A stretch of DNA of 64,000 bases from an uncultured Clostridia bacterium (GCA_947588985.1 CANQBG010000004.1:1667-65666), one strand, 5' to 3'. Shown: positions 7,564 through 24,719, counted from the stretch's first letter. The notes: generated by a model from the sequence alone, not told the origin. Numbers and translations are program-made.

Positions 7564-7583
7564 TTTCGCGTCTCCTGATATTT

Positions 7584-8219: not shown

Positions 8220-8270
8220 GATGGCTTTCTCCTTTTTTATAAACCACGCGCGTTGGCATAGGATTCATGC

Positions 8271-9782
8271 TCATTCATGCTTCAAATAGTTGATCGCTTT
8301 TTCAGTAAGACTTCTGCCGCGGCCGGTGACGATAATAAATCCAATCCTAATAAGATACGGTTCGTATTCGGAGAGGTACTTCTTGGGGTCCAATCCAATA
8401 CGGGCAGCAAGCGTATCGGCGCCGATCGCACCGCTCATATCCTCTGCGATTGCGTTCAGGATCTCCAAATCCTTCTTTTCAAGGCCGATCTCATTGATGC
8501 CCTTTTCTTCAAAATACCGCTTCACGACGTCGAGATCGATGCTCGTTGAAACGCGCTGGCCCTTATCGTCGTAGAGTGCCGTATCCAACCCGTCCACAAA
8601 AGAATTGACATAGCGAATAGACCCGCGGCTACGGGGAATACAAGCGTCTATTGCTTCGTCGGTAATGGTAAGGCCCTTCGATGCTACTTTGTTCTTATAA
8701 ATGCGTTTCAGCTCATCGGGCGTATAGTCCACCATCTGGAACTTCAATCTGAGGCATCTGTCTTTTATGGTATTGAGGACCTTATCATCGTCGGTGGTTG
8801 CCGCGATAAAGGTGAAGTTGTCGATCGGAATGCGTTTCACCACGCCGTTTATGTCGGGCGGCGAGACATACACGCGACTGTTGAGCAACGTTAAAAGGCT
8901 CGATTGCAGCTCGTCCGTCAACATATGTATTTCGTCAAAGGCGATCACGACGGGTTCGTTCTCCCTTGCGACCTTCATCAAGAAATTCTGCAAGGCCTTC
9001 AGGGATTGCTGGCTGTTGCGATATTGCGAACAGTCCATCCACTCATACCGAACGCCGAGCGCCTTTGCGATAAGTTCCATGAGCGTGGATTTCCCAAGCC
9101 CGGGATTGCCGAAAAGCAGGATGTTATCGAGATACTTCCTTCCCTGCGCTTTGGCAATGGCGATTTCTTTTAACAAAGGTTTGACGATATGCTGCTGACC
9201 GATAAATCCCTCCAATGTATCCGGAGAGAACAACGGCTCATCTTTTCCTCCGCCGTCAACTTCTTCTCCCTCCGAAGCGGGCACAACGGGTGCGACGGGG
9301 GCATCAACTTTCGGCTCGTCGTCCTGCCCCTTTATGATCGGCTCCACGGGGATAAGCGGCTCCGCGGGTTCGGAAATAATGGGCGAAGGCTTGACGTCGG
9401 GCTCTTGCGGTCCTACAATGCCGTCTATATTCACGCCGCCGCTTGGAATCGACGGTCCTTGAGGGGGCAAAGCGCGTCCGCCCCCGCCCAAGATATCCCC
9501 GAAGGAAGGGATATCCGTGTCTGCAATCAGCCCGAAGAACTTTTGGACACGCCTGTCCTGCAGGCCGTTTTTGCGGATGATTTCTATGTAACTTCCGAAA
9601 ACATCCTGCCAATGGGATAGCTTTGCCTTGATAACGATGGGATCGCCGTTGTTGAGCGAATATTGCCCGGCAAACAGCTTGTACAGCTCTAAGAGCCCTT
9701 GCAACGTGGCCTCTTGATCGTTTGCCCGCGCGGCATGCAATGCCGCTCTGTACTTCTCACGAAATAAATCTGCAAATGTCAT
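8271..9782 (-). CDS. RuvB-like AAA+ ATPase with N-terminal MIT-like helical domain and Pro-rich linker
   Basis: FIGQQHIVKPL, Walker A GNPGLGKST, Walker B VVIAFDEIHML, and FTFIAATTDD...IKDRC. The C-terminal winged helix YEPYLIRIGFIIVTGRGRSLTEKAINYL closely matches the RuvB C-terminus (EPYLIQxGFxxRTPRGR). The first ~175 aa are extra relative to RuvB. Confidence 0.8.
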   Translation of the reverse strand: MTFADLFREKYRAALHAARANDQEATLQGLLELYKLFAGQYSLNNGDPIVIKAKLSHWQDVFGSYIEIIRKNGLQDRRVQKFFGLIADTDIPSFGDILGGGGRALPPQGPSIPSGGVNIDGIVGPQEPDVKPSPIISEPAEPLIPVEPIIKGQDDEPKVDAPVAPVVPASEGEEVDGGGKDEPLFSPDTLEGFIGQQHIVKPLLKEIAIAKAQGRKYLDNILLFGNPGLGKSTLMELIAKALGVRYEWMDCSQYRNSQQSLKALQNFLMKVARENEPVVIAFDEIHMLTDELQSSLLTLLNSRVYVSPPDINGVVKRIPIDNFTFIAATTDDDKVLNTIKDRCLRLKFQMVDYTPDELKRIYKNKVASKGLTITDEAIDACIPRSRGSIRYVNSFVDGLDTALYDDKGQRVSTSIDLDVVKRYFEEKGINEIGLEKKDLEILNAIAEDMSGAIGADTLAARIGLDPKKYLSEYEPYLIRIGFIIVTGRGRSLTEKAINYLKHE

Positions 9783-9808
9783 AATTATTTACTCCTTTCG
9801 ATTCTTTG

Positions 9809-12406
9809 TTAAGATTTTTCTTTATATCCCCAAACCACGGGCCGGCCCGAGTTCCAATCGTTGTCCCATCCCTTCGGCTGTTCTTTTGCTTCACAATAAA
9901 TCGTCAAGTTGCTGCAACCATCGAACGCCCAACTCCCAATTGAAGTCACGCTGTCGGGAATGGTAATGGAAGTCAACCCGCTGCAACCATCGAACGCCCA
10001 ACTCCCAATCGAGGTCACGCCGTCGGGAATGGTAATGGAAGTCAATCCACTACAACCGCTGAACGCATTCCAGCTAATCGAAGTCACGCTGTTAGGGATG
10101 GTAATGGAAGTCAATCCGCCACAACCATAGAGCGCATAACTTTCAATCGAGGTCACGCCGAGAGGAATCTTGATATTCTTACAACCCAAAATCAAGGCAT
10201 TCGAATCCCTTTCAATGATACAATTTCCTTCACTACGATAGACAGCATTCCCCTCCGCTACTTCAATATGTTCGAGTCCAATACATCCGCGAAACGCATA
10301 ATTCCCAATCGATGTCACGCCGTCGGGAATGGTAATGGAAGTCAATCCACTACAATCCTCGAACGCATAACTTCCAATCGATGTCACACTGTCCGGAATG
10401 GTAATGGAGGGCAACCCGCTGCAATCCTGGAACGCATCATTCCCAATCGATGTCACACTGTCCGGAATGGTAATTGAGGTCAAAGCACTACAATTATAGA
10501 ACGCAGAATTCCCAATTGAGGTGCCTCCTGTGATGATGACTTCTTTCAGCGATGCCGGAACAAATCTATAGTTAGAGGAATTATACTCTGCGCCGAAAAT
10601 GTAGCCGAAATGCGTATTTTCGGAACCCTCGTTCGAAGCGCCCACAAACGGAATCGTGATCCTCACAAGCGAACTACAATCCTCGAACACACCGCCTCCA
10701 ATCGAGGTCACGCTATCGGGAATAAATACCGATTGTAGGCGTAATGAATCAACGTCTTTTCCCCGACCGACGGCTGTAACAGGCTCCCCGCGGTATTCAG
10801 AAGGAATCTCCAAGTATTCCGTCATTTTGTTGCAAATAACGTAAGTATATGTTCCGTCCGCATTTTCCGTGTAATAATCCAACTTTACGAAATTCGGGAA
10901 GGTGCTCACCCCCCCTGTCATGATTGCATAGACAAAAAATAAGCTACCCGAGCAAACAAGGAGAAAACGCGGTATGCATTTTCCTTTATGCTTTATAAGC
11001 CCCCATATTATGAGCCCTAAATACGCAACAAGTGCAATAACAAATCCTAAAATTATCCACCACTTCCAATCGCCCACCGCTTGATAGACAAAAATCCATT
11101 CTGATAAAAAAATTCCGACATCAACTGAGGCCGCGCCTTGCCAATCGACGCCAAACCCTTCGAAATTTGGGTTTTTACTAACAAAGGATAGCACTATCCA
11201 CAATGCGGCTAACCCCAAAACAGCCAAGCAATTTAGCCCGTAAATGATCGTGAACAACCAACCCGTATAATCATCAAACGACTTAACAGGAAGATAAAAA
11301 TCCAAAATCATAACCGCAATGGAGAGGGCAATCGGAAGAATCAGTACAGTATATATTCCGATTTGTTGTAAAACCGGAATGGCACGTTTAAGACGTTCAC
11401 GGCGTTTTTCTTTCCTTTTTTGCCTATGTAGTTTTTTGTCATCGCTTTCCGCGACGGAAATTTCTATGGCTCTTAAGCGCTTTTCCTTCTCCTCGCTCAA
11501 ATATTCGTCGTATTGAGTTTTATATTCTCTGTAATCATCATCTATTAGAGTACCGCTTTGTCCCCTGTATCTCTCAATCGCTTCAATATATTTTTTGATT
11601 TCTGACCCGCGAAATTTCGTGAAATTTTTTGAGGCAATTCGCAAAAGTCCGACATAACCGTTTGCATCCTTCGGGTTGGAATCAAGCGCCTTGTTGAAAA
11701 TTTGCTTGGCCTTTCGCAAGGCGTTCTTTTTCCGAGGATGCGCCGGAGCGCCGCACAATCTTATTGCTTCTTTGATCTCTTTTTCGTATTCTTCTTCGGG
11801 AGTGATAAGACTTTTGGCTTCAGCAATGGAAATGCCGTAGGTACTATGAAATTTCTTCTTTTGTACCCAGTTGCAAATTCCGGCAACGGCGGCAACTACA
11901 AGAGTAACGATCTCCGCTCCACCTGTACAATAAAAGCCGATTCCATCGTAATCCATCCCAAAATACATCGCGACGGGACTAAGCAAAAGTATAAATATCG
12001 CGGATATGATTGCCGTCCACTTTGAAATGGTTTCTCCGTCGATTGCCTTTTGGGCGGCGTCTCCATTCCGCTTCAAACACTCCCTGATCTCCCGCAAATG
12101 CTCCATCTCGCGATCATGCCATGTTTGGACCTCGGCGCATATCGCGGCAAACCTGTTGTCTACTGTTCTTTCTTTGCCATCTTTGTTTTCTCCTCTCAGC
12201 GTATCGAATCTGAGAAACGACTCTAATTCGGTTTTATCCGTCAGACCTTCCAAACTGCTTAATCCTTCAAGCGTACAATCGTTAAATCCGCGAAGGAGCG
12301 CCTCTATACGATCGTAATATTTTTCGTATATTTGAGGATAGTCGGACTTCCACCTACTATCCTTAAGCATCTGCAAAAATTTTCCTGCCTTAATTGCGTT
12401 CTTCAT
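9809..12406 (-). CDS. polytopic membrane protein with C-terminal BspA-type leucine-rich repeat domain
   Basis: 865 aa. A helical N-domain is followed by a TM hairpin (aa ~130-180), a basic coiled coil and about 6 further TM helices (aa ~345-520). About 13 LRR units follow (ITIPDSVTSIGSWAFDGCSGLTS), ending in LTIYCEAKEQP...PVVWG. Confidence 0.8.
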   Translation of the reverse strand: MKNAIKAGKFLQMLKDSRWKSDYPQIYEKYYDRIEALLRGFNDCTLEGLSSLEGLTDKTELESFLRFDTLRGENKDGKERTVDNRFAAICAEVQTWHDREMEHLREIRECLKRNGDAAQKAIDGETISKWTAIISAIFILLLSPVAMYFGMDYDGIGFYCTGGAEIVTLVVAAVAGICNWVQKKKFHSTYGISIAEAKSLITPEEEYEKEIKEAIRLCGAPAHPRKKNALRKAKQIFNKALDSNPKDANGYVGLLRIASKNFTKFRGSEIKKYIEAIERYRGQSGTLIDDDYREYKTQYDEYLSEEKEKRLRAIEISVAESDDKKLHRQKRKEKRRERLKRAIPVLQQIGIYTVLILPIALSIAVMILDFYLPVKSFDDYTGWLFTIIYGLNCLAVLGLAALWIVLSFVSKNPNFEGFGVDWQGAASVDVGIFLSEWIFVYQAVGDWKWWIILGFVIALVAYLGLIIWGLIKHKGKCIPRFLLVCSGSLFFVYAIMTGGVSTFPNFVKLDYYTENADGTYTYVICNKMTEYLEIPSEYRGEPVTAVGRGKDVDSLRLQSVFIPDSVTSIGGGVFEDCSSLVRITIPFVGASNEGSENTHFGYIFGAEYNSSNYRFVPASLKEVIITGGTSIGNSAFYNCSALTSITIPDSVTSIGNDAFQDCSGLPSITIPDSVTSIGSYAFEDCSGLTSITIPDGVTSIGNYAFRGCIGLEHIEVAEGNAVYRSEGNCIIERDSNALILGCKNIKIPLGVTSIESYALYGCGGLTSITIPNSVTSISWNAFSGCSGLTSITIPDGVTSIGSWAFDGCSGLTSITIPDSVTSIGSWAFDGCSNLTIYCEAKEQPKGWDNDWNSGRPVVWGYKEKS

Positions 12407-12426
12407 TCACCACCACGCTCCTCTCC

Positions 12427-13449
12427 TCACAATTCGATATCATTGCTTTCGCACCACTTCTTGAGCAGTTCCTCAATCGCATCCATCGGCGTGGCGTTGG
12501 CATAGCCTTCGGCAGAAACGTTGTTCACGGCGACGGTCTTTGATTTGTTGATACCGATACACTCGCCCAGCCTGTTGAGGACGGGCCCGCCCGAATCGCC
12601 CGGATTGGACGGCGCGGTATAGACCAAATTCCCCTCGTCGTTTTGTGTGAAGCGAACAACGCCCGCAAAGGGAGCAAGGCCCATCCCGAAGGCATTGCCG
12701 ATTACAAGGCAATCCGCGCCTTGCAACACCTGCGAATAATCGGGTACGCGCTTTATAACTGTAAATTCACCCACCTCGGCGGGATCAAAGCTGCAAAGCG
12801 CAACATCCGCTTTCTTGTCGGAGAACAAAATATTTATCTTATAGCTCTTTTTCTCCCCCAAAAAGGACATTTTTGCTTTCGGATAATAGCATTGCGTTTT
12901 CTCATTGAACACAACATGGTCGTTGGTAAGGAGATATCCGTTTTTAGAAATAATGAAGCCCGTCCCTGTCGCGCCGACGCGAGAATCGGAAACAGAGATT
13001 GCAACAACGGATCGCTTGCTTTTTTCAAACAGCTCGGCACACCAACCTTGCGTTTTGGCGGATTCGTCTATCAGTCCCGCGATATCAATTTCATCGCTCG
13101 GCGGGGAAGGTTGCGCAGGTTGATCGGCGCTCGACGGTTTTTTGGGTTCCTGCTCAGCAGGCTTTTTCACCACTTTCGGCAAATTTTGTTCTTGTTTTGT
13201 CGGAAGCCCGAAACATTTCAAAACAAAATCGGTGATGCCCTTTGTCCGAAGCTCTTTTGATACCGCGATCCATTTATCTAAAAAAGCCTGCGTCTTTGCT
13301 TTGATGAGAATGGTTTTCGCCTGATTATATGTTTCAACCGCATAATTCAAAATGGCGAGAACATATGCTCTCGCCGCTTTGGGGTTATTTTGTTTGATAA
13401 GCTCCCTTGCGTTCGAGTAGTAGGTAGCTATCTTATCCCGATCGTTCAC
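12427..13449 (-). CDS. trypsin-like serine protease (S1/HtrA-like core, no PDZ) with N-terminal MIT-like helical domain
   Basis: GTG start directly after the upstream stop, with AAGGAG 8 nt upstream. Catalytic triad context: LTNDHVV, ADVALC, GDSGGPV. The N-terminal ~85 aa helical domain is followed by a Pro/Lys-rich linker. Confidence 0.8.
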   Translation of the reverse strand: MNDRDKIATYYSNARELIKQNNPKAARAYVLAILNYAVETYNQAKTILIKAKTQAFLDKWIAVSKELRTKGITDFVLKCFGLPTKQEQNLPKVVKKPAEQEPKKPSSADQPAQPSPPSDEIDIAGLIDESAKTQGWCAELFEKSKRSVVAISVSDSRVGATGTGFIISKNGYLLTNDHVVFNEKTQCYYPKAKMSFLGEKKSYKINILFSDKKADVALCSFDPAEVGEFTVIKRVPDYSQVLQGADCLVIGNAFGMGLAPFAGVVRFTQNDEGNLVYTAPSNPGDSGGPVLNRLGECIGINKSKTVAVNNVSAEGYANATPMDAIEELLKKWCESNDIEL

Positions 13450-14643
13450 TCATTTGCTCCTTTTAAGTCTCAAAAGTAACTCCTCGTAGGATATTCCCAT
13501 ATCATACGCCTTAAATCTCAACAACATCTCGTTCGTTACGCCGTTGATATAGTATTTAATTACCTTGTCGCAATCTGCAAGAGTTATCATCTCGCCTTGC
13601 TCGCGCCCCTTCTTCATAATGTTAAGAATTTCGCGCCTTAAAGGTTCATTCGCGATTTGCTTCATGATCGCCCTGATATCGGCACCCGCATATCCTTCTA
13701 ACCTTTGCGCGAGATATTCGACAGTGACGTCCGGCGCATGGGGCAAGTGAGCGAGGTCAAGTGCAACAAATTTTTCTCGGGCATCCGCATCGGGAAGCGG
13801 AACGTAAATTTGCGTTTCGAACCTTCCGCCCCGTTTGAGTGCGGGATCGAGTTTCCACGGCAAATTCGTTGCCGCTACAATGATCCGAAGTTGATTGGGC
13901 TTTTGGGTTTTCATAAAGCCGTCCATGCAAGTCAACATGGTGGTCAGTATGGATTTTGTATGCCTCGAATCATCGCTGCTCCGATCTGAACAGATACTAT
14001 CGATTTCGTCGAGAAAGATGATGCATCTGTCAAGCTCTGCCGCCTGCGCAAAGATGTCCCGCATATTCTTTTCGGCAACACCTACGACGCTTGCCAAAAC
14101 TTCGCTTGTTTGGACAACGGCTATCTTGCAGTTCAATGCCCCTGCAAGACACTTTACGATGTGCGTCTTCCCTGTCCCGGGAGGCCCGTATAACAGGATT
14201 TGCGTTCCGAGTTGATTCCCTCTGAACTTATGATACACAGTCTGGAATTCGGGCCTCAAGGGAGCGACGACGTCCACCATAAAGGCATCCTTGACTTCTT
14301 GGACGCCGATGATGTTCGTAAAATTAAGTTTCGGCACTTCGTCCGAAAACCACTTCCTCTCGGAATAATAGGGGTCAACGCCACCTTCCCCGTCACTCGA
14401 ACAAGCAACGGAGAGAGGCGGCTGCTTTGCGTAGCGAACAAGGTGACTGATTACGACGGAACATTGTTTGCGATAGGCATCTTTTGTCGTCGTGCTTACG
14501 TTTGGATTGGAACATTGCTCCATGGCCATATGAAGCATTTCGGCGCCAACCTCACAAATGGCATCTATGTCTCCTGCAGCCACTGCTTCATTAAAGGTGC
14601 CTATCTTACTATTGAAGACACTAATCATGCTCGCTTCTGCCAT
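13450..14643 (-). CDS. Vps4/CdvC-like meiotic-clade AAA+ ATPase with N-terminal helical (MIT-like) domain
   Basis: Walker A LLYGPPGTGKT and Walker B IIFLDEIDS. AATNLPWKLDPALKRGGRFETQIYVPLPD matches my recollection of Vps4 (ATNIPWQLDxAxRRRFExRIYIPLPD). The lid reads LEGYAGADIRAI. Single AAA cassette, 397 aa. Confidence 0.75.
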   Translation of the reverse strand: MAEASMISVFNSKIGTFNEAVAAGDIDAICEVGAEMLHMAMEQCSNPNVSTTTKDAYRKQCSVVISHLVRYAKQPPLSVACSSDGEGGVDPYYSERKWFSDEVPKLNFTNIIGVQEVKDAFMVDVVAPLRPEFQTVYHKFRGNQLGTQILLYGPPGTGKTHIVKCLAGALNCKIAVVQTSEVLASVVGVAEKNMRDIFAQAAELDRCIIFLDEIDSICSDRSSDDSRHTKSILTTMLTCMDGFMKTQKPNQLRIIVAATNLPWKLDPALKRGGRFETQIYVPLPDADAREKFVALDLAHLPHAPDVTVEYLAQRLEGYAGADIRAIMKQIANEPLRREILNIMKKGREQGEMITLADCDKVIKYYINGVTNEMLLRFKAYDMGISYEELLLRLKRSK

Positions 14644-14657
14644 AATTGTATGTTACC

Positions 14658-15281
14658 TTAGTCCTTTTTTCCGTTCTCTTCGGCAACGATCCCCGCATAG
14701 TCGATGTCGCCGGTTGCGGTTGCGTCTGCGCCTTCAGGCTTAGAAACGGCTTCGGGAGTAATTTTCCCCTTCACGCGCTCTATCATGGCCGCATACTCAG
14801 CTTTGAATTGATCGGATTGCTCAATCTCATCCGCCGTAGTTCCATCCAAACGGCTCGAAATGCTCTCAACCGGCTTGGGATCGAGAATTTCATTCAGCTT
14901 TGCAAGTTCCGCTTCGGATTTGTTGATGTCTTTGAAAATTGCCGTGATGCTCTTCCCAAGTTTGGTAAAATCGGGCGATTCTGCCAACAGGCCTTTGCAA
15001 CCCGCAATTGCCGCAGGGAGTTTCCCGAGTTCCGAAATCGCCAGTGCCGTGTATGCCCCGAGTTCAATGTTGCTCTTGAGCGTTTTGAGTTGTTCGATAA
15101 GCGCATATACGCGAATCTTCTGCTTGATCAGTTGTTTGGCTCTCGCATCGTCGCTACGCAATGCGGCTTCGTCGATATAGACATCATACTTTGCTCCAAA
15201 CTTTTGAAGATTGCGAACGGACTTATCGAGTGCATCCAATGCCGCAATGATTTTTTGGTCATTTGTTTGTTTCTTAGCCAT
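14658..15281 (-). CDS. Snf7/ESCRT-III-like helical protein (candidate)
   Basis: 207 aa with a basic N-terminus (MAKKQTNDQK) and predicted long helices (ARAKQLIKQKIRVYALIEQLKTLKSNIELGAYTA; ISELGKLPAAIAGCKGLL; FTKLGKSITAIFKDINKSEAELAKLNEIL). The tail is acidic. Size, charge polarity and helix pattern resemble CdvB/Snf7. It lies immediately upstream of the Vps4-like gene. Assignment is by eye only. Confidence 0.5.
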   Translation of the reverse strand: MAKKQTNDQKIIAALDALDKSVRNLQKFGAKYDVYIDEAALRSDDARAKQLIKQKIRVYALIEQLKTLKSNIELGAYTALAISELGKLPAAIAGCKGLLAESPDFTKLGKSITAIFKDINKSEAELAKLNEILDPKPVESISSRLDGTTADEIEQSDQFKAEYAAMIERVKGKITPEAVSKPEGADATATGDIDYAGIVAEENGKKD

Positions 15282-15332
15282 AATATTTATCTCCTTATTA
15301 TTTTTTTACATATTTGAATCCAATCTGCCGGT

Positions 15333-15809
15333 CTACTTCCTGTCTGGAATTGCCGCTTCCGCGGCACGAATCAATTCTTCGATTGCCTCACTTTCCATCT
15401 CGTCGCAAAGCTCGCGCACCAGTTCGATCCCCATTTTTTTTAATTCGGGCAAATGCCGCATGTCCTTTGCCGCCATCATTAAAGCGCCTTCATGGATGGC
15501 TTTCCAAACCTTTTTATAATCGCCCGAACGGATAGCCATTTGTGCTGCACCGATTGCCGCATTGAAAATGTCGATTATGGCGGAAAATTTTTCGATGTTC
15601 TGCCGGGCCGTCATATCATCTGCTGCTTCTCTTGCGGCCTTTAGTCGGAGACTATACAAATTGACGATATCTTCCAAGAGATAAAATTCAACAAAAGCCT
15701 CCCTGTCGATGAGCGAAACCCGTATCTGCTGATATATCGGACTTTTTTTCAACATGCAATTTGCCTGTACAACACGTGCTCTATGCGAGCGAATTATGCT
15801 TTTCGCCAT
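15333..15809 (-). CDS. hypothetical helical protein, paralogue B (conserved C-terminal tail IRAAEAAIPDRK)
   Basis: ORF 15333..15887 trimmed to Met27 (MAKSIIRSH). Clearly paralogous to the upstream gene (IDREAFVEFYLLEDIV, NIEKFSAII.IFNAAIGAA, SGDYKKVWKAIHEGALM). Confidence 0.7.
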   Translation of the reverse strand: MAKSIIRSHRARVVQANCMLKKSPIYQQIRVSLIDREAFVEFYLLEDIVNLYSLRLKAAREAADDMTARQNIEKFSAIIDIFNAAIGAAQMAIRSGDYKKVWKAIHEGALMMAAKDMRHLPELKKMGIELVRELCDEMESEAIEELIRAAEAAIPDRK

Positions 15810-15825
15810 AAAATCCGTCTCGGTT

Positions 15826-16440
15826 TTAGGTATTCGGATCCATTCTGCTGGTCTTCTTCCTGTCGGGAATCGCCGCTTCCGCGGCACGGATCACTTCTTC
15901 GATTTCATCCATGGTAGGAGGAAGATCTTTTACCCTGCGCACGTTTTCCTCATGCGCATCCAAATCGTCCAAATCTTCATCCAATTCATGACTAATGTCT
16001 ACCGCAGTCATCATGTCTTCGGACAGCTCACGCAACAGCTCTATTGCTAAGCTCTTTAATTCGGGCAAATTTTTGACACTACTCGCCGCCGCCATCAAAG
16101 CGCCTTCATGGATGGCTTTCCAAACCTTTTTATAATCGCCCGAATTGATAGCTGATCTCGCTGCCCCGATTGCCGCGTTGAAAATGTTGATGATGGCAGA
16201 AAATTTTTCGATATTCTGCTTCCTGCCTTTTTCATCGGCGCGGCCCTGAGGGACATATGCCTTTTCTTCTCCCAGGCGGATATTGTATAACTTAACAATA
16301 TCCTCCAATAAGTAAAACTCGACAAAAGCCTCTCGGTCGATGATTGAAATACGCTCTCTACTAAATTTCGGATGTTTTTTCAGCGTTTCATTTGCCTGCT
16401 TCACCCGAGCCATGTGTGAACGGATTGTTTTTTCTCCCAT
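15826..16440 (-). CDS. hypothetical helical protein, paralogue A (acidic C-region plus tail IRAAEAAIPDRK)
   Basis: 204 aa with a GGAGG RBS. First gene downstream of a consensus promoter. Basic N-terminus and an acidic C-terminal third (ELDEDLDDLDAHEE). Confidence 0.7.
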   Translation of the reverse strand: MGEKTIRSHMARVKQANETLKKHPKFSRERISIIDREAFVEFYLLEDIVKLYNIRLGEEKAYVPQGRADEKGRKQNIEKFSAIINIFNAAIGAARSAINSGDYKKVWKAIHEGALMAAASSVKNLPELKSLAIELLRELSEDMMTAVDISHELDEDLDDLDAHEENVRRVKDLPPTMDEIEEVIRAAEAAIPDRKKTSRMDPNT

Positions 16441-16543: not shown

Positions 16544-16572
16544 TCTGTTTATCATTATAAACCGTTTCCTTA
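16544..16572 (-). promoter_or_regulatory. consensus sigma-A promoter of the ESCRT-like operon
   Basis: On the minus strand: TTGACA, a 17-nt spacer (TAATTAAGGAAACGGTT), then TATAAT, about 100 nt upstream of the ATG at 16440. Confidence 0.6.
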
Positions 16573-16690
16573 ATTATGTCAACTGTTATCCGCTATATTT
16601 CCCTCAAAAAGCCGAAAAAATCTTCTCTTTCGTCCATTTCCGCATCCCTCCTTGTTTGATGTCATTATAATCCATCCTGATTGCAAGTTA

Positions 16691-16936
16691 TCAGTTCTTT
16701 TTCCGCCCTTCCAGCAAGTCGTAATATTCCTCGAATATATCGAGTGCCGCAAGCTCATCCGTTTCGATTTTGAGATATGGCGGCCCTTGGGGCGGTTCTC
16801 CCACATAAAAGACCATCGCCTCATCATCGGCAACCCCCTCCATCGGAGTAATGGGTTTCAAGACGCAATACAGTTTCTCGTCGTGTGGGATGACCGCCAC
16901 CTGTTCAAAAAGAATTTCGTGGCCATGTTCATCCAC
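16691..16936 (-). CDS. DUF1292 family protein (N-terminus apparently frameshifted; see finding)
   Basis: VDEHGHEILFEQVAVIPHDEKLYCVLKPI...YLKIETDELAALDIFEEYYDLL fits the DUF1292 pattern (compare B. subtilis YrzB). The ORF starts at GTG. A much better RBS+ATG lies at 16992 in another frame. Confidence 0.65.
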   Translation of the reverse strand: MDEHGHEILFEQVAVIPHDEKLYCVLKPITPMEGVADDEAMVFYVGEPPQGPPYLKIETDELAALDIFEEYYDLLEGRKKN

Positions 16937-17004: not shown

Positions 17005-19491
17005 TTATCCGTCAAGCGGTCCATATTTCTTGATGAACTGCTCTTTCGTTATGAGTATACGGCGTCCCTTCGACCTATCGAGCGGAGAGATGTATCCCAT
17101 GCTTTCCATCCAGTCGATGATTTTCCCCGCATGGTTGTATCCAATACAGCATTTCCGCTGCACGAGGGAAATTGACGCCTCACCTTCTTGGATCACGATT
17201 GCCAGAGCCTTAATATAGAGCGGGCTTTCCGGGGACGCATCCGTGTCCTTGTCGGAAGCATTCGAGGCAGTTTTCTTGGTGGCACGCCGGATATATTGCT
17301 TGGCCCCCTCATTAAACTTTGCCTCATGCGTCTTCTTTGTTGCCGCAACGGCTGCGGCCAATGCCTCATACGGAAGATAGGCGCCCTGTATTCGTTCGCA
17401 CAGCGAAGTGAATTCGCTCCACATGAGCAGATCGCCAAACCCAAGCAGTTTTTCTGCTCCGCTTTCATTGATGAGTATACGCGAATCGTTTTCCCGGATC
17501 ACCCGAAACGCAATGCGCGTGGGGAAATTTGATTTCAACGCACCCGTAACGACATCTGGGGTCGGTCGTTGGGTAGCAAGAACGAGGTGGATTCCTGCCG
17601 CACGTGCTTTTTGCGCCAACCGTAGCACGCCCTCCCCAATGGCGCGATTTACTGCGACAAAATCCGCATATTCGTCGATGATGATGACGATGCGCGGAAG
17701 ATTTTCCTCCCCTTCTTTACGCGCCGCATGATAATCTTCGATATTCCTTATCGGATCTCCCGCAGCAATCTTGCCTTGAAAGATTTGATACCGGCGTTCC
17801 ATTTCATGGATTGCCCACGTCAGCATGCGAGCCATGGGCTCCGCGTCTGTGATGATATGCCCCGTGAGAAGGTGCGGCATCTCATCATAGTGCATAAACT
17901 CCGATTGTTTAGAGTCGCACAATATGAGCCGGACATCGTCGGGAGAGTATTTTGTTACCAAGTTGTAGATCATCGTATGGAGGAACGTGGATTTCCCGGA
18001 ACCGATTGTGCCTCCGATCAAAATGTTTTTGAGGCGTACAATGTCTCCGTAAACGGAATTCCCGTCCACATCTTTACCGATGGCGAAGTAGAGCGACTCC
18101 GGCTTGCTCCACCGTTCGTTGGCATCGTGGATCAATTCCTCCGCCGGAACCGTCTCGCGCTCGGACCGAACGCGCGGCACCTCGATGCAGATCCGTCTGC
18201 TGCCCGCGGGATCGGTATAGACCCGCACCCCTTCCCTTTGCCCAAGGCGCATGGCAAGCTCGGTGGCTCTTTTGGTTACGGCGGATGGGGAAACCGCGCT
18301 CGGAATCACAAGTGCAAAGCGCATAACCGTCGCCCCCACGGAAACATTGGCGATCCCGGAATCAATGTGGAATCCCGCCAATGTCCCGGTGATGATGTCT
18401 GCGGTTCTCGTCACTTCATCGGACAAGATCCTCTTGTCGAAAAGTTCGTCATCTACGTCCTCCTCATCGAAGGCCTCTTTTTCTTCCTTTTCGACGCCTA
18501 CGGCTTGCCCGGATTCTCTTGCGAGGAGGGTATCGCGGATTTTTGCATAATCCGCCTCCGTCATCTTGGCAAACTCCTTCACCGCCCTTGCGTAGACGAC
18601 AATGTCGTCAATGTTTTCGCCGTCCTTCACTCTCTGATAGCGTTCCCGCATGCGCAGGATCAGCTGCCCGCGATCCATCTCCGGATCGGCGGTCAACAAT
18701 TCCTTCGCGACGCCTAAAATGCTTTCATTCTCTTTGCCGGTATCCACGCACATGGCGACCTCATCCGCGTCGATCGCAACAATACGCTCTATTGCTGCAA
18801 ATAGTTGTAACATATAGGTTACGGTATTCTCGGGAGAGGGAACTTCGATCCAAAGCTCGTCCTCGACAATGCTGATCTGATAGCGATCCGCAATCGAGTG
18901 GATTCGTTCTGAGATTCCCTCCGCGTCAAGCGGCGTGTGCATCTTGAGAAAGCGAAGCGCGATTGCATCGTCCGAAAGATAGACATCGTCATCCCGGATC
19001 ACAATCTTGAACCGGATCGTCCTTCCGCGGATATTTAGCCCTTCGGGGGCGAGATAATGTTCGCCGTTTATTTGGATAATCGAAACGCCTTCGTCCAACT
19101 CATGGGTGATGGCATAAACTTCCGGCGGAGTATCGTCGCCCGATTCCTTGTCGTCCGATTCGTCGTCATCCGATTCCTCGTCGTCCTCCAAAGTTTCCTT
19201 CTCACATTCCTCACGCATTCTCCGAAGGATCTCCCGCCTGCGCGCCTCTAAAGACGCGCGTCTTGATCTCAGATCATACAACTCGTCGAATCTCCCGGCT
19301 TCCCTTTTTCTGTCTGTCTGTAAGACGAAATATTGAATGCCCGAATCCAAACGGAGCACCCCGTCCTCCACACATTTTTCGATTAGTTTGGAGATGCTAC
19401 GATAATCGGCAGAAAATCTTTTCTGCAATTCCGGGATCGAAACCTTCTGCTGCGCCTTAATATAATTGAGTATTTCTTGATCGTTTGCCAT
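17005..19491 (-). CDS. FtsK/SpoIIIE-family DNA translocase, soluble (no TM region), with wHTH domains at both ends
   Basis: Trimmed to MANDQEIL (AAGGAG RBS). Walker A GGTIGSGKST, Walker B IVIIIDEYADF, and ATQRPTPDVVTG. The C-terminal gamma-like wHTH reads ISLVQRKCCIGYNHAGKIIDWMESMGYI. An N-terminal wHTH is followed by an acidic stretch. I see no hydrophobic helices. Confidence 0.85.
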   Translation of the reverse strand: MANDQEILNYIKAQQKVSIPELQKRFSADYRSISKLIEKCVEDGVLRLDSGIQYFVLQTDRKREAGRFDELYDLRSRRASLEARRREILRRMREECEKETLEDDEESDDDESDDKESGDDTPPEVYAITHELDEGVSIIQINGEHYLAPEGLNIRGRTIRFKIVIRDDDVYLSDDAIALRFLKMHTPLDAEGISERIHSIADRYQISIVEDELWIEVPSPENTVTYMLQLFAAIERIVAIDADEVAMCVDTGKENESILGVAKELLTADPEMDRGQLILRMRERYQRVKDGENIDDIVVYARAVKEFAKMTEADYAKIRDTLLARESGQAVGVEKEEKEAFDEEDVDDELFDKRILSDEVTRTADIITGTLAGFHIDSGIANVSVGATVMRFALVIPSAVSPSAVTKRATELAMRLGQREGVRVYTDPAGSRRICIEVPRVRSERETVPAEELIHDANERWSKPESLYFAIGKDVDGNSVYGDIVRLKNILIGGTIGSGKSTFLHTMIYNLVTKYSPDDVRLILCDSKQSEFMHYDEMPHLLTGHIITDAEPMARMLTWAIHEMERRYQIFQGKIAAGDPIRNIEDYHAARKEGEENLPRIVIIIDEYADFVAVNRAIGEGVLRLAQKARAAGIHLVLATQRPTPDVVTGALKSNFPTRIAFRVIRENDSRILINESGAEKLLGFGDLLMWSEFTSLCERIQGAYLPYEALAAAVAATKKTHEAKFNEGAKQYIRRATKKTASNASDKDTDASPESPLYIKALAIVIQEGEASISLVQRKCCIGYNHAGKIIDWMESMGYISPLDRSKGRRILITKEQFIKKYGPLDG

Positions 19492-19501
19492 ATTTTTCTC
19501 C

Positions 19502-21214
19502 TTAATCGTCAAAGAAACTTCGTCTGCCGCTTTGCATGGAATCTTTCATATCTAACCGGAAGGTGTATTTTGCGTCGAACGGGTTGGCCTTGCCGACATA
19601 CTGTTTCTCGTCAGAAAGCGACATATCCGTGAATTCTTTGCAGAGATAGTACCGCTCCAGCTTGGAGAAAAGCACATACCCGCAATTCGCTTCCGTAACA
19701 ATGCACTCTCCGGGCGAGAAATGCGCAAGCATACTTTTGGGAATCAGCGGGATCGTCTCAAATTGATAGTTATCCATTTCCGGCTCCTTCCCGTTCAAAG
19801 CCGACGCGGGCGCAAGTCGTGTATATTGACCGCACTCCTTCGAGAATTCCTCAAGCGTTTGAGGATTATTTGAGCCGAAAAAGATGTGCATATTGAGGTT
19901 ATCCCGGATAATGGCGGCGACGGCGTCTCCATACACACTGTTGAGCTGCGCATACGACTGCACGATGAGGATGAAGAAGATATTGCGCCCCGCACAGGCG
20001 GAGATCGTCGTTTCGAAGTCTTTCATGGGCGGGAAATTGCCGAACTCATCGAGGATGAAATAGAAGGGAACTTTGCGCTTCCCGTCCGGCTCGCTGTTGG
20101 CATGTTCGATGAGAAGCCGATAGGCGTCCTGAATAAACAGACTGATAACCTTAAAATGGACTTTGAGCTCATCGCGGTAGTCGATAAAGAGCGCAACGGG
20201 CTTTTTCCCCGTGAGAACGCCCATATCGAAGGAGTTGCAACTCGTGACAAGGCGCATCGCGCTCTCGCGGAAGATGGACATCTGCGTACTAAATACGCTC
20301 GTGATACATTGCCGCGTTGTTCGAGCTTCTTCCGGAATGGTCGCTTTTTCGATTTGATAGGCGCGAGAAGTCTTGGGGCGGTTAGTAAAGTATCCCCCGT
20401 CAAAATCATGATCAGACTTGTTCAAAAGCCCCATGAGCGTGATGATCGTCGCGAAGGAGTAGGTCTCTTCCGTGATCTGTGTCCTCCCAGAATCGCCCAA
20501 AAGCTCAGGGCGGCTGTCCTCTAACATCGCCCACAGAAAGGCTTTGAGAAGTTCGCGGCCGCTGTCCTCCCAATACGGATCGTTTGCTTTACTCGTGGGC
20601 GCGATCATAATCGCGAGACTATCGATATCGTTCCCAACTTCCTCCATCATGAGGTTTTCCCATCGTCTGAGTTCTTCATCCAATTCGGCTTGGCTCTCAT
20701 AGATCTTTCCGTGCAGACGGTTACGGGGACCATTTTCCGTATCTACGACCTCGATCTCATTGTAGATATTGAAAATCGAATGATATTTCCGGTAGATGGG
20801 CGTCAGCGGATTCCAACACTCGGAATGCTTGTAGTCGCGGAAGTTGAGAAAGAGGAGCTCATAGCCCTCCGCACGGAGCGTCGAGGCGGTGTGGCGGTAG
20901 ATCTCCCCCTTGGGATCGGAGATGATCATGCTCTTCTTATTCTTCGCCCGTGCAAAAGACAGCACCGTCGGGACGACATAGGATGTCGTCTTGCCGAGCC
21001 GCGTCGCTGCGATGACGCCGACATGATTCTCCTTCTCCGAATAGGTTTGCAGAAGCCGTCCGTTTACATAGCGGCATGCCTTCAAGACGCCCGTCACTTC
21101 ATGTTCGGGAAGTTCGTCATACCAAAAGCTGTTGGAAAACGATTCTCCGAGTTCGTCATAGTGGTAATATTTGGTGTTTTCGTACCCATTCAAAAGTTCA
21201 TTCGTGGTCGTCAT
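19502..21214 (-). CDS. VirD4/TraG-like (type IV coupling protein family) ATPase, soluble
   Basis: Trimmed to MTTTNELL (GGAGGGAG RBS). Overlaps the upstream gene by 17 nt. Walker A AATRLGKTTS and Walker B FYFILDEFGNF, the latter typical of the TraG/VirD4 family. No N-terminal TM helices. Confidence 0.75.
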   Translation of the reverse strand: MTTTNELLNGYENTKYYHYDELGESFSNSFWYDELPEHEVTGVLKACRYVNGRLLQTYSEKENHVGVIAATRLGKTTSYVVPTVLSFARAKNKKSMIISDPKGEIYRHTASTLRAEGYELLFLNFRDYKHSECWNPLTPIYRKYHSIFNIYNEIEVVDTENGPRNRLHGKIYESQAELDEELRRWENLMMEEVGNDIDSLAIMIAPTSKANDPYWEDSGRELLKAFLWAMLEDSRPELLGDSGRTQITEETYSFATIITLMGLLNKSDHDFDGGYFTNRPKTSRAYQIEKATIPEEARTTRQCITSVFSTQMSIFRESAMRLVTSCNSFDMGVLTGKKPVALFIDYRDELKVHFKVISLFIQDAYRLLIEHANSEPDGKRKVPFYFILDEFGNFPPMKDFETTISACAGRNIFFILIVQSYAQLNSVYGDAVAAIIRDNLNMHIFFGSNNPQTLEEFSKECGQYTRLAPASALNGKEPEMDNYQFETIPLIPKSMLAHFSPGECIVTEANCGYVLFSKLERYYLCKEFTDMSLSDEKQYVGKANPFDAKYTFRLDMKDSMQSGRRSFFDD

Positions 21215-22817
21215 GAATACTCCCTCCAAAGCCAAATGCTTTCTTCCGCGCGCCGACGCTGCCGATATAAGGACGCACCAACGATTCTGTAAGAAGAAGC
21301 TTCTCCAGACGATGTTCGCGCACGGCGGCATCGATCGCTCTATCGATCTCATCGATGCTATATCCGGAAAGTTTCTCGGCAAGCCCTTCCTGCATCGCAA
21401 GCTCTTGCACCCCATAGGCGATCCCCTTCTCGCGTACCACACGTTCCGTAAATTGCCGCTTTTCCTCCATGGTCAGCTCCGAAATGCGCACCATATCGCA
21501 ATAGGGCTTTAATTTCTTGGCATTCTCTCTGTCGCAGAAGCAGATCGGAAGCACGGACGAAAGATCAAGCGACACGCTCGGATGATTCAGACGGTATTTC
21601 CCGCGCTTATCGCTCTGTAGGAAGTTCTTCGCCATATCAAACGCCCTTTCGGAGATTTCCCCGCGAAACGTGAGCAGATACAGGTTGAATGCGTCCTCAT
21701 CGCAACCGCGCACGAAGATGTTGTTTTTCGTGGGTTCGAAGTCGTATTCTACAAGGTCGCCTATCTCGACCCGCTCCATATGAGACGCCTCGAAACACCG
21801 CATGAGCAATCCGGCATAGTAGTCGAGCATATATTTACTGTCCGAAACAAAGCAGAGCGGGCGATAGGTAGCCATCGTTCTCAAGTCGATATTTTCGAGC
21901 GCGCAAAGGATCTTTTCGCCCTCTTCGGGATGGTCGGGGCGAACCCCGTCAAGCGCCTTTGCATGGAATTCCGCCGTACCATGTCCGAGTTTGAGGGGCA
22001 ACGAACTCGCTTCGGCAAAGAGTTCCGCATTCGGCGTGAGAAGAAGCGTTTCCTTGTCGCGCTCGCTGAGGATCTCCGAATAGACGAGCCGCGCATAGGA
22101 CTTATTGTAGACGTCCCGCTTGATGATCCCCTGCCGAAACGCCTTTTCAAGAAGTCGATACTCCCCATGCCGCCCCTTTACATACGAGCCATACTTCTCC
22201 CGCACCCGTTCGAACACTTCGGCATGTCCGATGCGGACAAGGCAATCTTGCAGACATTCGAGATACTTTTCCCGATTGTCAGGGTCATAATACAGAGCCG
22301 CAAGCAGACCTTCCTCGCTGTTCCATTCCGCCGCACAGAGAATTTTCTTGCGTCCGCTTCCCTCGTCCTTGTGAAAAACAATGCCCTCCGACTGCAAGAT
22401 ACCAAGCGCGTTGAGCGCAATCACAAGTCCGTTTTCTACGGCAAGCGTCAGATTTTCACAAGCGACGGAGCGCACATCCTTCCCATCGCACGCGAGATGA
22501 AAGTTTTGCGCCAACGTAAACGCTGTCCCCTTCAAATCGATGATCTCTTCGCACTCGGGATCTCTGCCGTGCAAACGGTCATTCATGGAAAGATACTGCT
22601 TTATGCGGAGATGTTGGTTATATTTGAATACGCTCTGAATTTGCACGACTTCTTGCGTTTGCGACAACGCAAAGATGTGTTCCGCCTCCTCCTGCGGCAA
22701 GAGAAAGATATTGGCATAGGCGAAGAAAAGCGGCCGCTTGTCCGCACAGAAACGCCCAACGGTGTTCTCCGCAATATAATAATTTTTCAACATGGTTTCC
22801 GTTAGATGGTCAAACAT
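21198..22817 (-). CDS. hypothetical protein with Sel1-like repeat region and a C-terminal degenerate AAA+-like domain (tentative)
   Basis: 539 aa. LNALGILQSEGIVFHKDEGSGRKKILCAAEWNSEEGLLAALYY resembles Sel1 repeats. The C-terminus (LSGYSIDEIDRAIDAAV) resembles an AAA+ lid, but I find no Walker A GKT. Start overlaps the ClpP stop by 8 nt. Confidence 0.45.
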   Translation of the reverse strand: MFDHLTETMLKNYYIAENTVGRFCADKRPLFFAYANIFLLPQEEAEHIFALSQTQEVVQIQSVFKYNQHLRIKQYLSMNDRLHGRDPECEEIIDLKGTAFTLAQNFHLACDGKDVRSVACENLTLAVENGLVIALNALGILQSEGIVFHKDEGSGRKKILCAAEWNSEEGLLAALYYDPDNREKYLECLQDCLVRIGHAEVFERVREKYGSYVKGRHGEYRLLEKAFRQGIIKRDVYNKSYARLVYSEILSERDKETLLLTPNAELFAEASSLPLKLGHGTAEFHAKALDGVRPDHPEEGEKILCALENIDLRTMATYRPLCFVSDSKYMLDYYAGLLMRCFEASHMERVEIGDLVEYDFEPTKNNIFVRGCDEDAFNLYLLTFRGEISERAFDMAKNFLQSDKRGKYRLNHPSVSLDLSSVLPICFCDRENAKKLKPYCDMVRISELTMEEKRQFTERVVREKGIAYGVQELAMQEGLAEKLSGYSIDEIDRAIDAAVREHRLEKLLLTESLVRPYIGSVGARKKAFGFGGSIHDDHE

Positions 22818-23409
22818 GGTGACTTCCTCCTTTCGCTTTGTTTGCGCCCGGGATCACATGGTCGATGAGGCCGTATTCCTTCGCGGCGGCAGCACTCATG
22901 ATGGTGTCGCGGTCGGTGTCCTTTTGAATCTTCCGGACGGGTTGATTCGTATTCTCGGCCATGATTTTGTTGAGCCTTGCGCGGATACGCTCGATATGAT
23001 TGGCCGCAATGATGATATCCGACGCCTGCCCGCTCGCCCCGCCGAGGGGCTGGTGGATGAGGATCTCACAGTTCTCCGTAGCCCTGCGCATCCCGCGCGT
23101 CCCCGATGAAAGCAGGAACGCCGCCATACTTGCGCACATCCCCAGCCCTACCGTCGCGATCTTTGCGTCGATGTAGTTCATTGTATCATAGATGGCCAGC
23201 CCGTCCGAGACGCTTCCTCCGGGGCTGTCGATCTGAATGGTGATGATGCGCTCCTCCATCGGTACTTCATCCGTGCGGAATTTGTCGTCGAGATATTGGA
23301 GCTGGCTGATAACGCGCTCCGCCGTCTCCGCCGTGATCGGTTCAAAAATATTGATGGTATTCCGCTTCAGACTGTATTGCCATGAAAATTCTTCCTTTTG
23401 GTCTATCAT
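22810..23409 (-). CDS. ClpP-family serine protease (paralogue encoded in the island)
   Basis: Trimmed to MIDQKEEF (AAGGAG RBS). IDSPGGSVSDGLAIYDTM, GMCASMAAFLL (Ser), IHQPLGG (His) and DTDRD (Asp) are closely similar to canonical ClpP. Confidence 0.88.
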   Translation of the reverse strand: MIDQKEEFSWQYSLKRNTINIFEPITAETAERVISQLQYLDDKFRTDEVPMEERIITIQIDSPGGSVSDGLAIYDTMNYIDAKIATVGLGMCASMAAFLLSSGTRGMRRATENCEILIHQPLGGASGQASDIIIAANHIERIRARLNKIMAENTNQPVRKIQKDTDRDTIMSAAAAKEYGLIDHVIPGANKAKGGSHHV

Positions 23410-23504: not shown

Positions 23505-23533
23505 ATTATACACGATTTCGTCAATCGTGTCAT
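23505..23533 (-). promoter_or_regulatory. putative promoter of the ClpP-to-DUF1292 operon
   Basis: On the minus strand: ATGACA, a 17-nt spacer ending in TG, then TATAAT (extended -10), about 95 nt upstream of the ClpP ATG. Confidence 0.45.
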
Positions 23534-23680: not shown

Positions 23681-24088
23681 TCAATTATGAACTACTACGA
23701 TATCGTCTAATTTCACATGGGCAATTTGACAATAAAAAAGTAAGTTCTCAATGCTAATGTGTGAACGCGCCTTTTCCCAGTTGTTGATTACATTTGAGGA
23801 CACGCCGAAAACCTCTGCAAGCTCCGGACAACTAATACTGTTGTCCATGTCCCTGAAAGTACAGGTTTCGCAATCTCCGGTTATATTTGTACATTTTATG
23901 GTATCCTTTCGAAGCATGCTACAGACATATCGCCTGAGATATTCATTGTTGCGCCGCAAATTGAATAATTTATTTCCGGTAGCTTCCCAATCTACAAATT
24001 GCCGAACGATCCTCATGTATGCCATTATATCATCATTTGCATGAATGCACAACTGTTTTTGAATAAAATGAAAATCTTTTTTGTGCAC
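23681..24088 (-). CDS. XRE-type helix-turn-helix protein
   Basis: C-terminal HTH ISCPELAEVFGVSSNVINNWEKARSHISIENLLFYCQI. AT-rich like the island. Forms its own transcription unit. Confidence 0.7.
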   Translation of the reverse strand: MHKKDFHFIQKQLCIHANDDIMAYMRIVRQFVDWEATGNKLFNLRRNNEYLRRYVCSMLRKDTIKCTNITGDCETCTFRDMDNSISCPELAEVFGVSSNVINNWEKARSHISIENLLFYCQIAHVKLDDIVVVHN

Positions 24089-24245: not shown

Positions 24246-24719
24246 TCAGGAGTTGCAGGGGCAGGTGGCCGTTTGGCTGAAGGGGCCGAGCGCGTATTGT
24301 TGGGCGTAGTACGCGTCGTAACAACGGTTGCAGCAGCCAGTGTAGCCGGAGAGATCGCCGGTCCCGCCGCAACCGCAGCCGCAGCTTCCGTTGTTATTTC
24401 CGCAACCGCAGCCGGTGCCGTTGGTGTTGCCGATGGTGCTGACGCCGTTATTGCCGCAGCCGCAACCCGTGTTACCGTTATTGCCGCAGCCGCAGCCGGT
24501 GTTGCCGTTATTGCCGGTGTTGCCGAGGGCATAGATTTGGTTGGCCGCGTTTACGCCGTCTACGAAGCCGTTTGTGAAGGCGACGGGGTTGTTGCGTTGG
24601 CAGCTGCTGCAGTAAGGCGCGGGGGAGAAGAGATTATTGATTGCATTTGCAAAACTATTCATGAGGCAACAGCCGGGATTGTTGCTTTGGCCGTTGCACG
24701 AATTGCAGGAATTGCTCAT
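24246..24719 (-). CDS. Cys/Gly/Asn-rich repeat protein (unknown function)
   Basis: Trimmed to MSNSCNSCNG (GGAGG 6 nt upstream). 157 aa with about 20 Cys and repeated GNTGCGCGNNG units. No signal peptide. Confidence 0.65.
   Translation of the reverse strand: MSNSCNSCNGQSNNPGCCLMNSFANAINNLFSPAPYCSSCQRNNPVAFTNGFVDGVNAANQIYALGNTGNNGNTGCGCGNNGNTGCGCGNNGVSTIGNTNGTGCGCGNNNGSCGCGCGGTGDLSGYTGCCNRCYDAYYAQQYALGPFSQTATCPCNS

Follow-up and report, generated by a model that had tools for sequence, protein, structure and literature searches.

We analysed two neighbouring ATPase genes at 17005-21214 in a window of 64,000 nt, one strand, from an uncultured Clostridia bacterium; all coordinates refer to the whole stretch. 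The genes encode a soluble VirD4/TraG-like ATPase, similar to type IV coupling proteins (T4CPs), and an FtsK-like protein. With moderate confidence, we conclude that both ATPases belong to a single operon which is translationally coupled and unrelated to conjugation, and that this unit is shared by gut bacteria, widespread and undescribed. Its invariant core is the pair formed by the T4CP-like ATPase and a hitherto unknown 539-aa protein, named U539 here; a ClpP paralogue is the commonest third partner, and a DNA-binding protein with winged helix-turn-helix (wHTH) or FtsK-gamma domains is the fourth. We favour, at about even chances, the reading that the operon may encode an ATP-dependent proteolytic machine associated with DNA, and that its island is a conflict island acquired horizontally.

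The T4CP-like ATPase and its invariant partner

The T4CP-like ATPase (19502..21214, minus strand, 570 aa) was identified by Pfam matches to T4SS-DNA_transf (E=1.6e-47), TraG-D_C (8e-27) and TrwB_AAD_bind (3.7e-16), the last of these for the all-alpha domain. A motif scan located its Walker A motif (AATRLGKT) at residue 69 and its Walker B motif (YFILDE) at residue 385. The original prediction, made from the sequence of the window, had placed the FtsK-like gene (17005..19491, minus strand) beside it and had read intact Walker A and B motifs in both proteins; Pfam and the motif scan confirmed this. It had further stated that neither protein carries transmembrane (TM) helices. Using a 19-residue Kyte-Doolittle window with a threshold of 1.6, we found no TM segment in either protein (no window at or above 1.6). 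As controls, the same test detected two segments in a plasmid T4CP of the CD1115 family and three to five in most housekeeping FtsKs. Moreover, 120 of 120 TraG-like family members lacked TM segments in this test, and no conserved membrane partner gene adjoined the TraG-like gene in a survey of the neighbours at the loci. Solubility per se is not new for T4CPs: TM-less members form an accepted subfamily, for example TraJ of pIP501, which acts with the membrane partner TraI (PMC7434980). TraJ, however, lies within a 15-gene tra operon with a type IV secretion system (T4SS) and a relaxase, and the system described here has neither, containing instead ClpP and an adaptor with an IGF-type tail. pIP501 also encodes TraN, a cytosolic double winged-helix DNA-binding protein.

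Homologues of the TraG-like protein number more than 1000 (~555-585 aa, 48-92% identity) and come from gut metagenome-assembled genomes (MAGs) of Christensenellales and other uncultured Clostridia, RF39-type 'Bacilli/Mollicutes/Anaeroplasma' and Erysipelotrichales, the nearest relatives being from rabbit-gut MAGs. Their distribution is patchy, with 110 matches in 185,579 species genomes and two copies in six genomes, and none was found in 2.9 million viral contigs. Plasmid T4CPs of the CD1115 family reached 28-30% identity at best. The best NCBIfam match, NF045973 (VirD4-like, CD1115 family), scored 235.8 bits, under its cutoff of 250, and a PDB profile search returned H. pylori Cag5 (E=3.5e-15). 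Within the FtsK-HerA superfamily, a neighbour-joining (NJ) tree, built quickly from distances and carrying no support values, followed an exhaustive search of 1.84 billion representatives and parted the TM-less proteins (58/131) from the TM-anchored T4CPs. The window protein fell within a TM-less sub-clade that has an unusual A-first Walker A motif, AATRLGKT. Taken together, the protein resembles VirD4, TraG and TrwB in its nucleotide-binding domain with Walker A/B, its all-alpha domain and its TraG-D_C region, and it differs from them in its separate clade, in the U539 gene directly upstream, and in lacking both the N-terminal TM domain and linkage to a relaxase or T4SS.

Gene neighbourhoods were counted at 80 species-level genome loci. 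U539 lay directly 5' of the TraG-like gene in 72 of the 73 loci with enough sequence. The ClpP paralogue was present in 44 of 71 loci and abutted U539 on the same strand in 43 of these 71. Pairwise identities of the proteins co-varied (TraG-like versus U539, r=0.95; TraG-like versus ClpP, r=0.88). In a metagenome scan of the sister clade, a match to the U539 hidden Markov model was found upstream of 10/10 TM-less T4CP-like genes with upstream sequence, compared with 0 of ~50 TM-anchored T4CPs. The signature of the lineage is its U539 partner and not the absence of TM segments. No Clp ATPase gene was found in any Pfam-annotated locus.

The ClpP paralogue (22810..23409, minus strand, ~200 aa; Pfam CLP_protease 2e-60) keeps the Ser-His-Asp triad motifs ASM, HQP and DTDRD. 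It scored 200 bits with the NCBIfam ClpP models, under the equivalog cutoffs, indicating a divergent paralogue. U539 (21198..22817, minus strand) matched no family in Pfam, PHROG, NCBIfam or PADLOC. A family profile searched against PDB identified Sel1 repeats at residues ~113-195 (E=2e-10), and its AlphaFold2 (AF2) model (pLDDT 90, pTM 0.79) matched the AAA+ modules of Lon proteases in Foldseek (E to 1e-8, probability 1.0). Since Walker A and B motifs are absent, U539 is a pseudo-ATPase with a Lon-like AAA+ fold.

The C-terminal tail of U539 is disordered in the model and carries an invariant motif, which reads AFGFGG in the window and [Y/I/F/L/M]-G-F across the family; distant U539 partners end outright in ...IGF, ...IGFR or ...IGFRG. 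Within 15 residues of the C-terminus, the motif was present in 70/70 homologues from the databases, 58/64 of the genome copies and 11/11 of the distant partners; the six other genome copies had CGF- or RGF-type variants of the tail. Among 1823 unrelated proteins of the same loci its background frequency was 1.2%. The TraG-like start lies within the end of U539, and the codons of the trailing GG (GGA GGG AG) form the Shine-Dalgarno sequence of this overlapping gene. We considered whether the GFGG tail is purely a Shine-Dalgarno artefact and rejected this by a codon test, which showed that the artefact accounts for the trailing GG only and not for x-G-F. All four codons are used at the invariant Gly of the motif, and TTC and TTT are evenly split at the invariant Phe; the trailing GG is biased to GGA-GGN, and its amino acids are less conserved. 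In distant loci the Shine-Dalgarno sequence sits 3' of the U539 stop codon, and x-G-F persists. The codon variety and the distant loci together indicate that selection on x-G-F acts at the protein level. To dock on ClpP, ClpX and ClpA insert the I-G-F tripeptides of their IGF loops into its hydrophobic H-sites (PMC9035409, PMC8745299). The U539 tail matches this ClpP-docking tripeptide, [L/I/V]-G-[F/L], at a flexible terminus, and docking to ClpP is predicted on this basis.

At their own C-terminus the TraG-like proteins have a basic stretch followed by an aromatic-acidic tail that ends in ...FDF in 50/120 members and in FFDD in the window (19502-19520). The Sel1 repeats of U539 could bind this tail as a peptide ligand.

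The FtsK-like protein and the downstream DNA-binding subunit

The FtsK-like protein (828 aa, counted from ATG 19491) gave Pfam matches to FtsK_alpha (2e-9), FtsK_SpoIIIE (1e-41) and FtsK_gamma (1.6e-23), with a Walker A motif (GTIGSGKS) at residue 501 and a Walker B motif (VIIIDE) at residue 609. As originally predicted, it has winged helices at both ends and an acidic linker. The N-terminal one (residues 8-70 in 835-aa numbering, 19303..19491) shows the secondary structure H-E-H-H-E-E in the AF2 model, and its Foldseek matches are wHTH domains, the gamma domain of E. coli FtsK (2j5p) among them. The C-terminal one is the FtsK gamma winged-helix DNA-binding domain found by Pfam (17047..17229), and the linker can be read in the sequence at ~residues 100-130. 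It is followed by a middle domain (residues ~131-340, 18493..19122), for which Foldseek gave no significant structural match with an AF2 model of moderate quality. This domain is conserved in proteins of cluster c17, in P0128 and in the L016 proteins. The FtsK alpha and beta motor domains occupy 17413..18429 and keep their Walker A/B and ATQRP motifs.

The full architecture is rare, with only 5 relatives among 5.8 billion proteins, and the close relatives also lack an N-terminal TM segment. The next matches were ordinary 4-TM FtsKs with 33-37% identity across the motor, and the NCBIfam FtsK equivalog NF007615 scored 271 bits against a cutoff of 1566. The protein is like FtsK/SpoIIIE translocases in its full alpha/beta/gamma set, its motor identity and its intact catalytic motifs, but unlike them in lacking the 4-TM anchor and linker, in place of which its N-terminus consists of a wHTH, the acidic linker and a novel domain. 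A further difference is that the motor is degenerate or absent at the orthologous positions of other loci. The gene 3' of the TraG-like gene nearly always encodes the same N-terminal wHTH, and often an FtsK-gamma-like wHTH at the C-terminus. Cluster c17, from L037 and L013, corresponds to the window protein without the alpha-beta motor; among the other variants are a wHTH joined to motor and gamma, proteins whose motor is divergent, and wHTH-gamma proteins in tandem. The motor was found in ~9/80 loci and, as a separate gene, in the distant L100. In the nearest full-length relatives the DE of Walker B is changed to DG or DD and ATQRP is eroded, whereas the window copy is intact. Given its rarity, the degenerate motifs in close relatives and the motor-less variants, the FtsK motor is an optional addition, gained or lost repeatedly, to a conserved DNA-binding subunit, and the window protein can be described as such a subunit with an inserted alpha-beta motor. 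DNA is probably a ligand of the system, since the gene at this position almost always encodes a wHTH and/or FtsK-gamma protein.

These results bear on the original proposal that three dsDNA-motor families, of FtsK, VirD4/TraG and RuvB type, mark DNA as a substrate. Its DNA part holds up as probable. Its three-motor framing is unsupported or incomplete: the FtsK motor and the RuvB paralogue, the latter an occasional accessory at ~7/80 loci, are both optional. The three-motor view gives these two components too much weight and overlooks the conserved proteolytic core. The invariant IGF-tailed Sel1/pseudo-AAA+ partner, together with ClpP at ~60% of loci, argues for proteolysis coupled to DNA binding, not for pure DNA pumping. 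The downstream subunits point in the same direction. P0128 (L007/L008 1303-6032), a motor-less relative with the middle and gamma domains that also matches the N-terminal region of the FtsK-like protein, is translationally coupled to a soluble 981-aa FtsH-like protease with two AAA domains and Peptidase_M41, and in L093 and L030 the gene for a Clp_N-domain protein is found 3' of the core; both tie DNA-binding subunits to proteolytic machines.

The island, its operon and the neighbouring genes

The two ATPase genes lie in a low-GC island at ~4.7-24.1 kb (GC 45-52% versus ~60% in the flanks), which forms a single minus-strand gene train flanked by LuxS/YitT and an ABC-FtsX transporter. In transcription order, it consists of an XRE-type HTH gene, the ClpP paralogue, U539, the TraG/VirD4-like ATPase, the FtsK-like gene, a small DUF1292-like gene and a second, accessory block. 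The small XRE-type HTH regulator (23681..24088, minus strand) is 5' of the operon; its homologous cluster has a weak match to PF01381 HTH_3, and homologues with 38-67% identity were found upstream of the core in ~1/4 of loci. A terminator-like hairpin (23650-23624) follows the HTH gene, and 3' of this hairpin and 5' of ClpP is a promoter-like site, ATGACA-17-TATAAT (23505..23533, minus strand; 11/12, a consensus match only), whose placement fits the ClpP start, an ATG at 23409 with a ribosome-binding site (RBS). The ClpP/U539 and U539/TraG-like genes overlap, and the TraG-like and FtsK-like genes are separated by a 10-nt gap with a GGAG RBS, the junction reading FFDD-TAA-GGAGAAAAAT-ATG. Since this ATG follows the TraG-like stop codon TAA and the GGAG RBS, the FtsK-like start is most likely ATG 19491 (MANDQE...), not TTG 19512. 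The junctions and the placement of promoter and terminator fit a single transcription unit for the core operon. Its final gene encodes the small DUF1292-like protein (16691..16936, minus strand), named from Pfam DUF1292 matches on a homologue and in L094, and homologues of it occur at ~1/3 of loci.

The accessory module (4708..16440, minus strand) is preceded by a sigma-70-like promoter with a perfect TTGACA-17-TATAAT (16554..16582, minus strand; a consensus match only), and it is probably a separate transcription unit. It comprises nine proteins, namely two paralogues of 204 and 184 aa, a weakly Snf7-like protein, a classical AAA ATPase, a trypsin-like protease, a BspA-type leucine-rich repeat (LRR) protein with 6 TM helices, the RuvB paralogue, a 2-TM protein and a BspA-LRR protein with zinc ribbons. 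Only the nearest relatives have this module together with the core, and its gene order varies among them. The tandem paralogues (15333-16440, minus strand) belong to no family; they share a stretch of DNA that is 85-87% identical and a conserved C-terminal peptide, ...IRAAEAAIPDRK, and have homologues only in the closest loci (L009/L017, L012). Within 12427-15281 and 8271-9782 (minus strand), an ~85-aa N-terminal helical domain with the motif ...IKAK...W...G(I/L)xD...FGL is homologous between the trypsin-like protease and the RuvB paralogue, and the neighbouring AAA ATPase has a similar-looking N-terminus. MIT domains at these three N-termini, which would bind the Snf7-like protein, are unsupported at the sequence level, with no MIT or ESCRT-III match in PDB and Pfam profile searches. 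An ESCRT-III identity of the 207-aa Snf7-like protein (14658-15281) is likewise doubtful (Pfam Snf7 E=1e-3, 19 bits versus a 27-bit cutoff; no PDB match). The AAA domain matched CdvC at 5.9e-42, and CDC48 and FtsH matched better. The two large BspA-type LRR proteins (4708-7563; 9809-12406, minus strand) contain 69-nt periodic repeats, and such proteins recur beside the RuvB paralogue in L004, L025, L037 and L086.

Pfam scans of the island proteins identified no relaxase, VirB4, pilin or cell-wall hydrolase, in agreement with the original prediction, and no relaxase or T4SS gene was found in 10 Pfam-annotated loci or in the top families of 134 neighbour clusters. The commonest domains in these clusters were FtsK_gamma (8), BspA LRR (6), Sel1 (3) and Metallophos (3), and the flanks of the annotated contigs were housekeeping genes such as PheRS, V-ATPase and tRNA methyltransferase. 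Known defence genes (AbiLi, MzaA, DRT, MADS) adjoin a few loci. PADLOC v2 returned no system, by which a known defence system was rejected, and gave domain-level matches only, to SspH, mad8, HerA and IetA, with none for U539 or ClpP. A stand-alone Clp_N protein, a Metallophos phosphoesterase and a HAD_SAK_2 ('Swiss Army Knife RNA repair') protein recur 3' of the core (L093 12458-14517; L030 14805-16486), and genes for an SGNH/GDSL hydrolase and a YgjP-like metallopeptidase are recurrent in other loci.

No tRNA, att-like repeat, integrase or recombinase was found in the window, and an integrative element was rejected as its identity. Serine recombinases are near only 2-3/94 loci, L004, L094 and weakly L031. 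In L004 (17802-19897) a large serine recombinase lies 6-7 kb 3' of the core and abuts a spoVAD open reading frame (ORF) of only 131 aa; in L094 (17006-18703; 21643-21683) it lies at the same distance, with a spoVAD gene ~3 kb further. This suggests that in L004 and L094 the system rides on a sporulation-gene intervening element. A prophage or phage-inducible chromosomal island origin was also rejected, with no capsid, portal or terminase and no relative on the viral contigs; ClpP matched phage head-protease PHROGs by general ClpP homology only. Just beyond the island, an ORF (24246-24962, minus strand) encodes a Gly/Cys/Asn-rich repetitive protein (GCGCGNNGNTG repeats) without a Pfam family. 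Further along, at 42813-55724 (minus strand), is a nucleic-acid scavenging cluster consisting of an SNase-domain protein, a solute-binding protein, Endonuclease I, a pyrimidine nucleoside phosphorylase and a 5'-nucleotidase-like protein.

Readings of the system and their implications

In the proteolytic machine that we favour, U539 would use its IGF-type tails, as ClpX uses its IGF loops, to hold the T4CP-like hexamer to the ClpP barrel; this hexamer is the one active ATPase that is constant. The wHTH/gamma subunit would position the machine on DNA, and in the window variant the built-in FtsK motor would let it track along dsDNA. DNA-bound or DNA-linked proteins would then be unfolded and degraded, or proteolysis would be triggered by DNA. 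The arrangement is like ClpXP and ClpAP in that a ClpP paralogue with its triad stands beside a ring ATPase, and in the flexible [I/L/Y/F]-G-F docking-type motif, which corresponds to the IGF loops that bind H-sites (PMC9035409). It is unlike them in that the active ATPase is of the FtsK-HerA/T4CP lineage instead of an AAA+ unfoldase, and in that the docking-type motif is on a separate, Walker-less, Lon-like subunit, at a C-terminus and not in an internal loop. The island is low in GC, and the system is patchily distributed, is present twice in some genomes, has effector-like companions that vary and occasionally adjoins defence genes. These features suggest a role in conflicts, which would be directed against mobile elements.

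Several points weigh against this reading. ClpP is missing from ~40% of loci, where the host ClpP would have to serve. The GG of GFGG is explained by the downstream Shine-Dalgarno sequence, and only x-G-F counts as evidence. Short distant partners of ~310 aa lack the pseudo-AAA+ domain, which is thus not essential to the pair. The physical interaction of ClpP, U539 and the ATPase is a prediction, the tree that sets the family apart carries no support values, and, to our knowledge, T4CPs are not established as unfoldases for proteases. PADLOC matched no system, and the defence role rests on genomic setting.

A pure DNA-motor system, in which the T4CP-like, FtsK-like and RuvB-like ATPases pump, expel, segregate or remodel foreign or element DNA and ClpP and U539 have only regulatory or turnover functions, is in our view rather unlikely. 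It would account for the intact FtsK alpha-beta-gamma module of the window, for the ubiquitous FtsK_gamma and wHTH domains downstream and for the retained all-alpha domain, and FtsK/HerA-type ATPases such as SspH and mad8 do occur in known defence systems. However, the scarcity of the FtsK motor and of the RuvB paralogue among the 80 loci, and the degenerate Walker B and ATQRP motifs of close relatives, argue against it, and it leaves the invariant IGF-tailed partner and the ClpP linkage unexplained.

Similarly doubtful is an NTPase-sensor conflict system, in which U539 and the T4CP-like ATPase would be the sensor or switch, ClpP, trypsin, AAA, TIR-methyltransferase, kinase and others would be interchangeable effectors, and the x-G-F tail would have another role, such as binding the T4CP-like ATPase. 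The highly variable companions and the invariance of the tail even where ClpP is missing are consistent with this, and T4SS-DNA_transf has been proposed as the sensor domain in three Menshen NsnA proteins (PMC12065111). Nevertheless, ClpP is by far the commonest companion and, where present, adjoins U539 directly in 43 of 44 loci, and the tail has, at a flexible terminus, the specific tripeptide used for docking on ClpP.

A decayed integrative and conjugative element (ICE), an integrative and mobilizable element or a mobilisation module, whose T4CP-like ATPase would have linked, or would even now link, DNA of the element to a T4SS encoded at another site, is very improbable. Among named families the conjugative VirD4-like CD1115 family is closest, TM-less T4CPs such as TraJ of pIP501 serve in conjugation (PMC7434980), and the large serine recombinases of L004 and L094 stand beside a truncated spoVAD. 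Yet the NCBIfam score is under the family cutoff, identity to plasmid T4CPs is at most ~30%, and no relaxase, VirB4 or integrase was found in the window or the annotated loci, nor any att repeat or tRNA. The more than 1000 proteins of the family are strongly conserved, at 48-92% identity, and their non-conjugative partner is fixed. The closest homologues were never beside a relaxase or T4SS in the surveyed neighbourhoods, and the absence of TM segments is a feature of the family, which speaks against an ICE remnant as the origin of the window's ATPase. Housekeeping proteostasis or cell-cycle machinery of Christensenellales-type bacteria is just as hard to credit, for although the ATPase sequence is highly conserved and ClpP and chaperone-like domains (Clp_N, DnaJ-Sel1, weak HSP70) are nearby, the distribution is patchy with two copies in some genomes, the genomic contexts vary, and the GC of the island is 10% below its flanks.

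Searches of PADLOC, NCBIfam, Pfam and the full-text literature turned up no account of the operon. Its closest precedents are the TM-less conjugative T4CPs, the T4SS-DNA_transf sensor domain of Menshen NsnA (PMC12065111) and the FtsK/HerA-type ATPases of the Ssp and MADS systems. The defence systems with such domains (SspH, MADS mad8, HerA and NsnA) are alike in having this ATPase superfamily in a conflict setting, island-like and with occasional defence neighbours, but the likeness is at the level of domains only, and none of their other components is present here. There is a realistic chance that the operon represents a new class of ATP-dependent protease. In its most specific and still speculative form, which we consider possible but improbable, a soluble T4CP hexamer would take the place of the AAA+ unfoldase, an IGF-tailed adaptor would link it to ClpP, and the wHTH/gamma subunit would guide it to DNA, where it would destroy proteins arriving on invading DNA, such as conjugative relaxases and phage terminal or DNA-end proteins. 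This would be an anti-conjugation and anti-phage immunity derived from a domesticated conjugation part.

If the proteolytic reading is true, this would be the first coupling-protein-type ATPase outside type IV secretion to act as the motor of a ClpP protease, and it would provide a soluble, tractable system in which the long-debated threading of polypeptides by T4CPs could be tested. Should it act as immunity against conjugative DNA or phage, DNA-guided proteolysis would be a new mechanistic principle. The analysis also defines a family of more than 1000 members from animal guts, in Christensenellales, RF39-type Bacilli and Erysipelotrichales, which databases mislabel as 'conjugative DNA transfer', inflating the counts of ICEs and T4SSs in MAG surveys.

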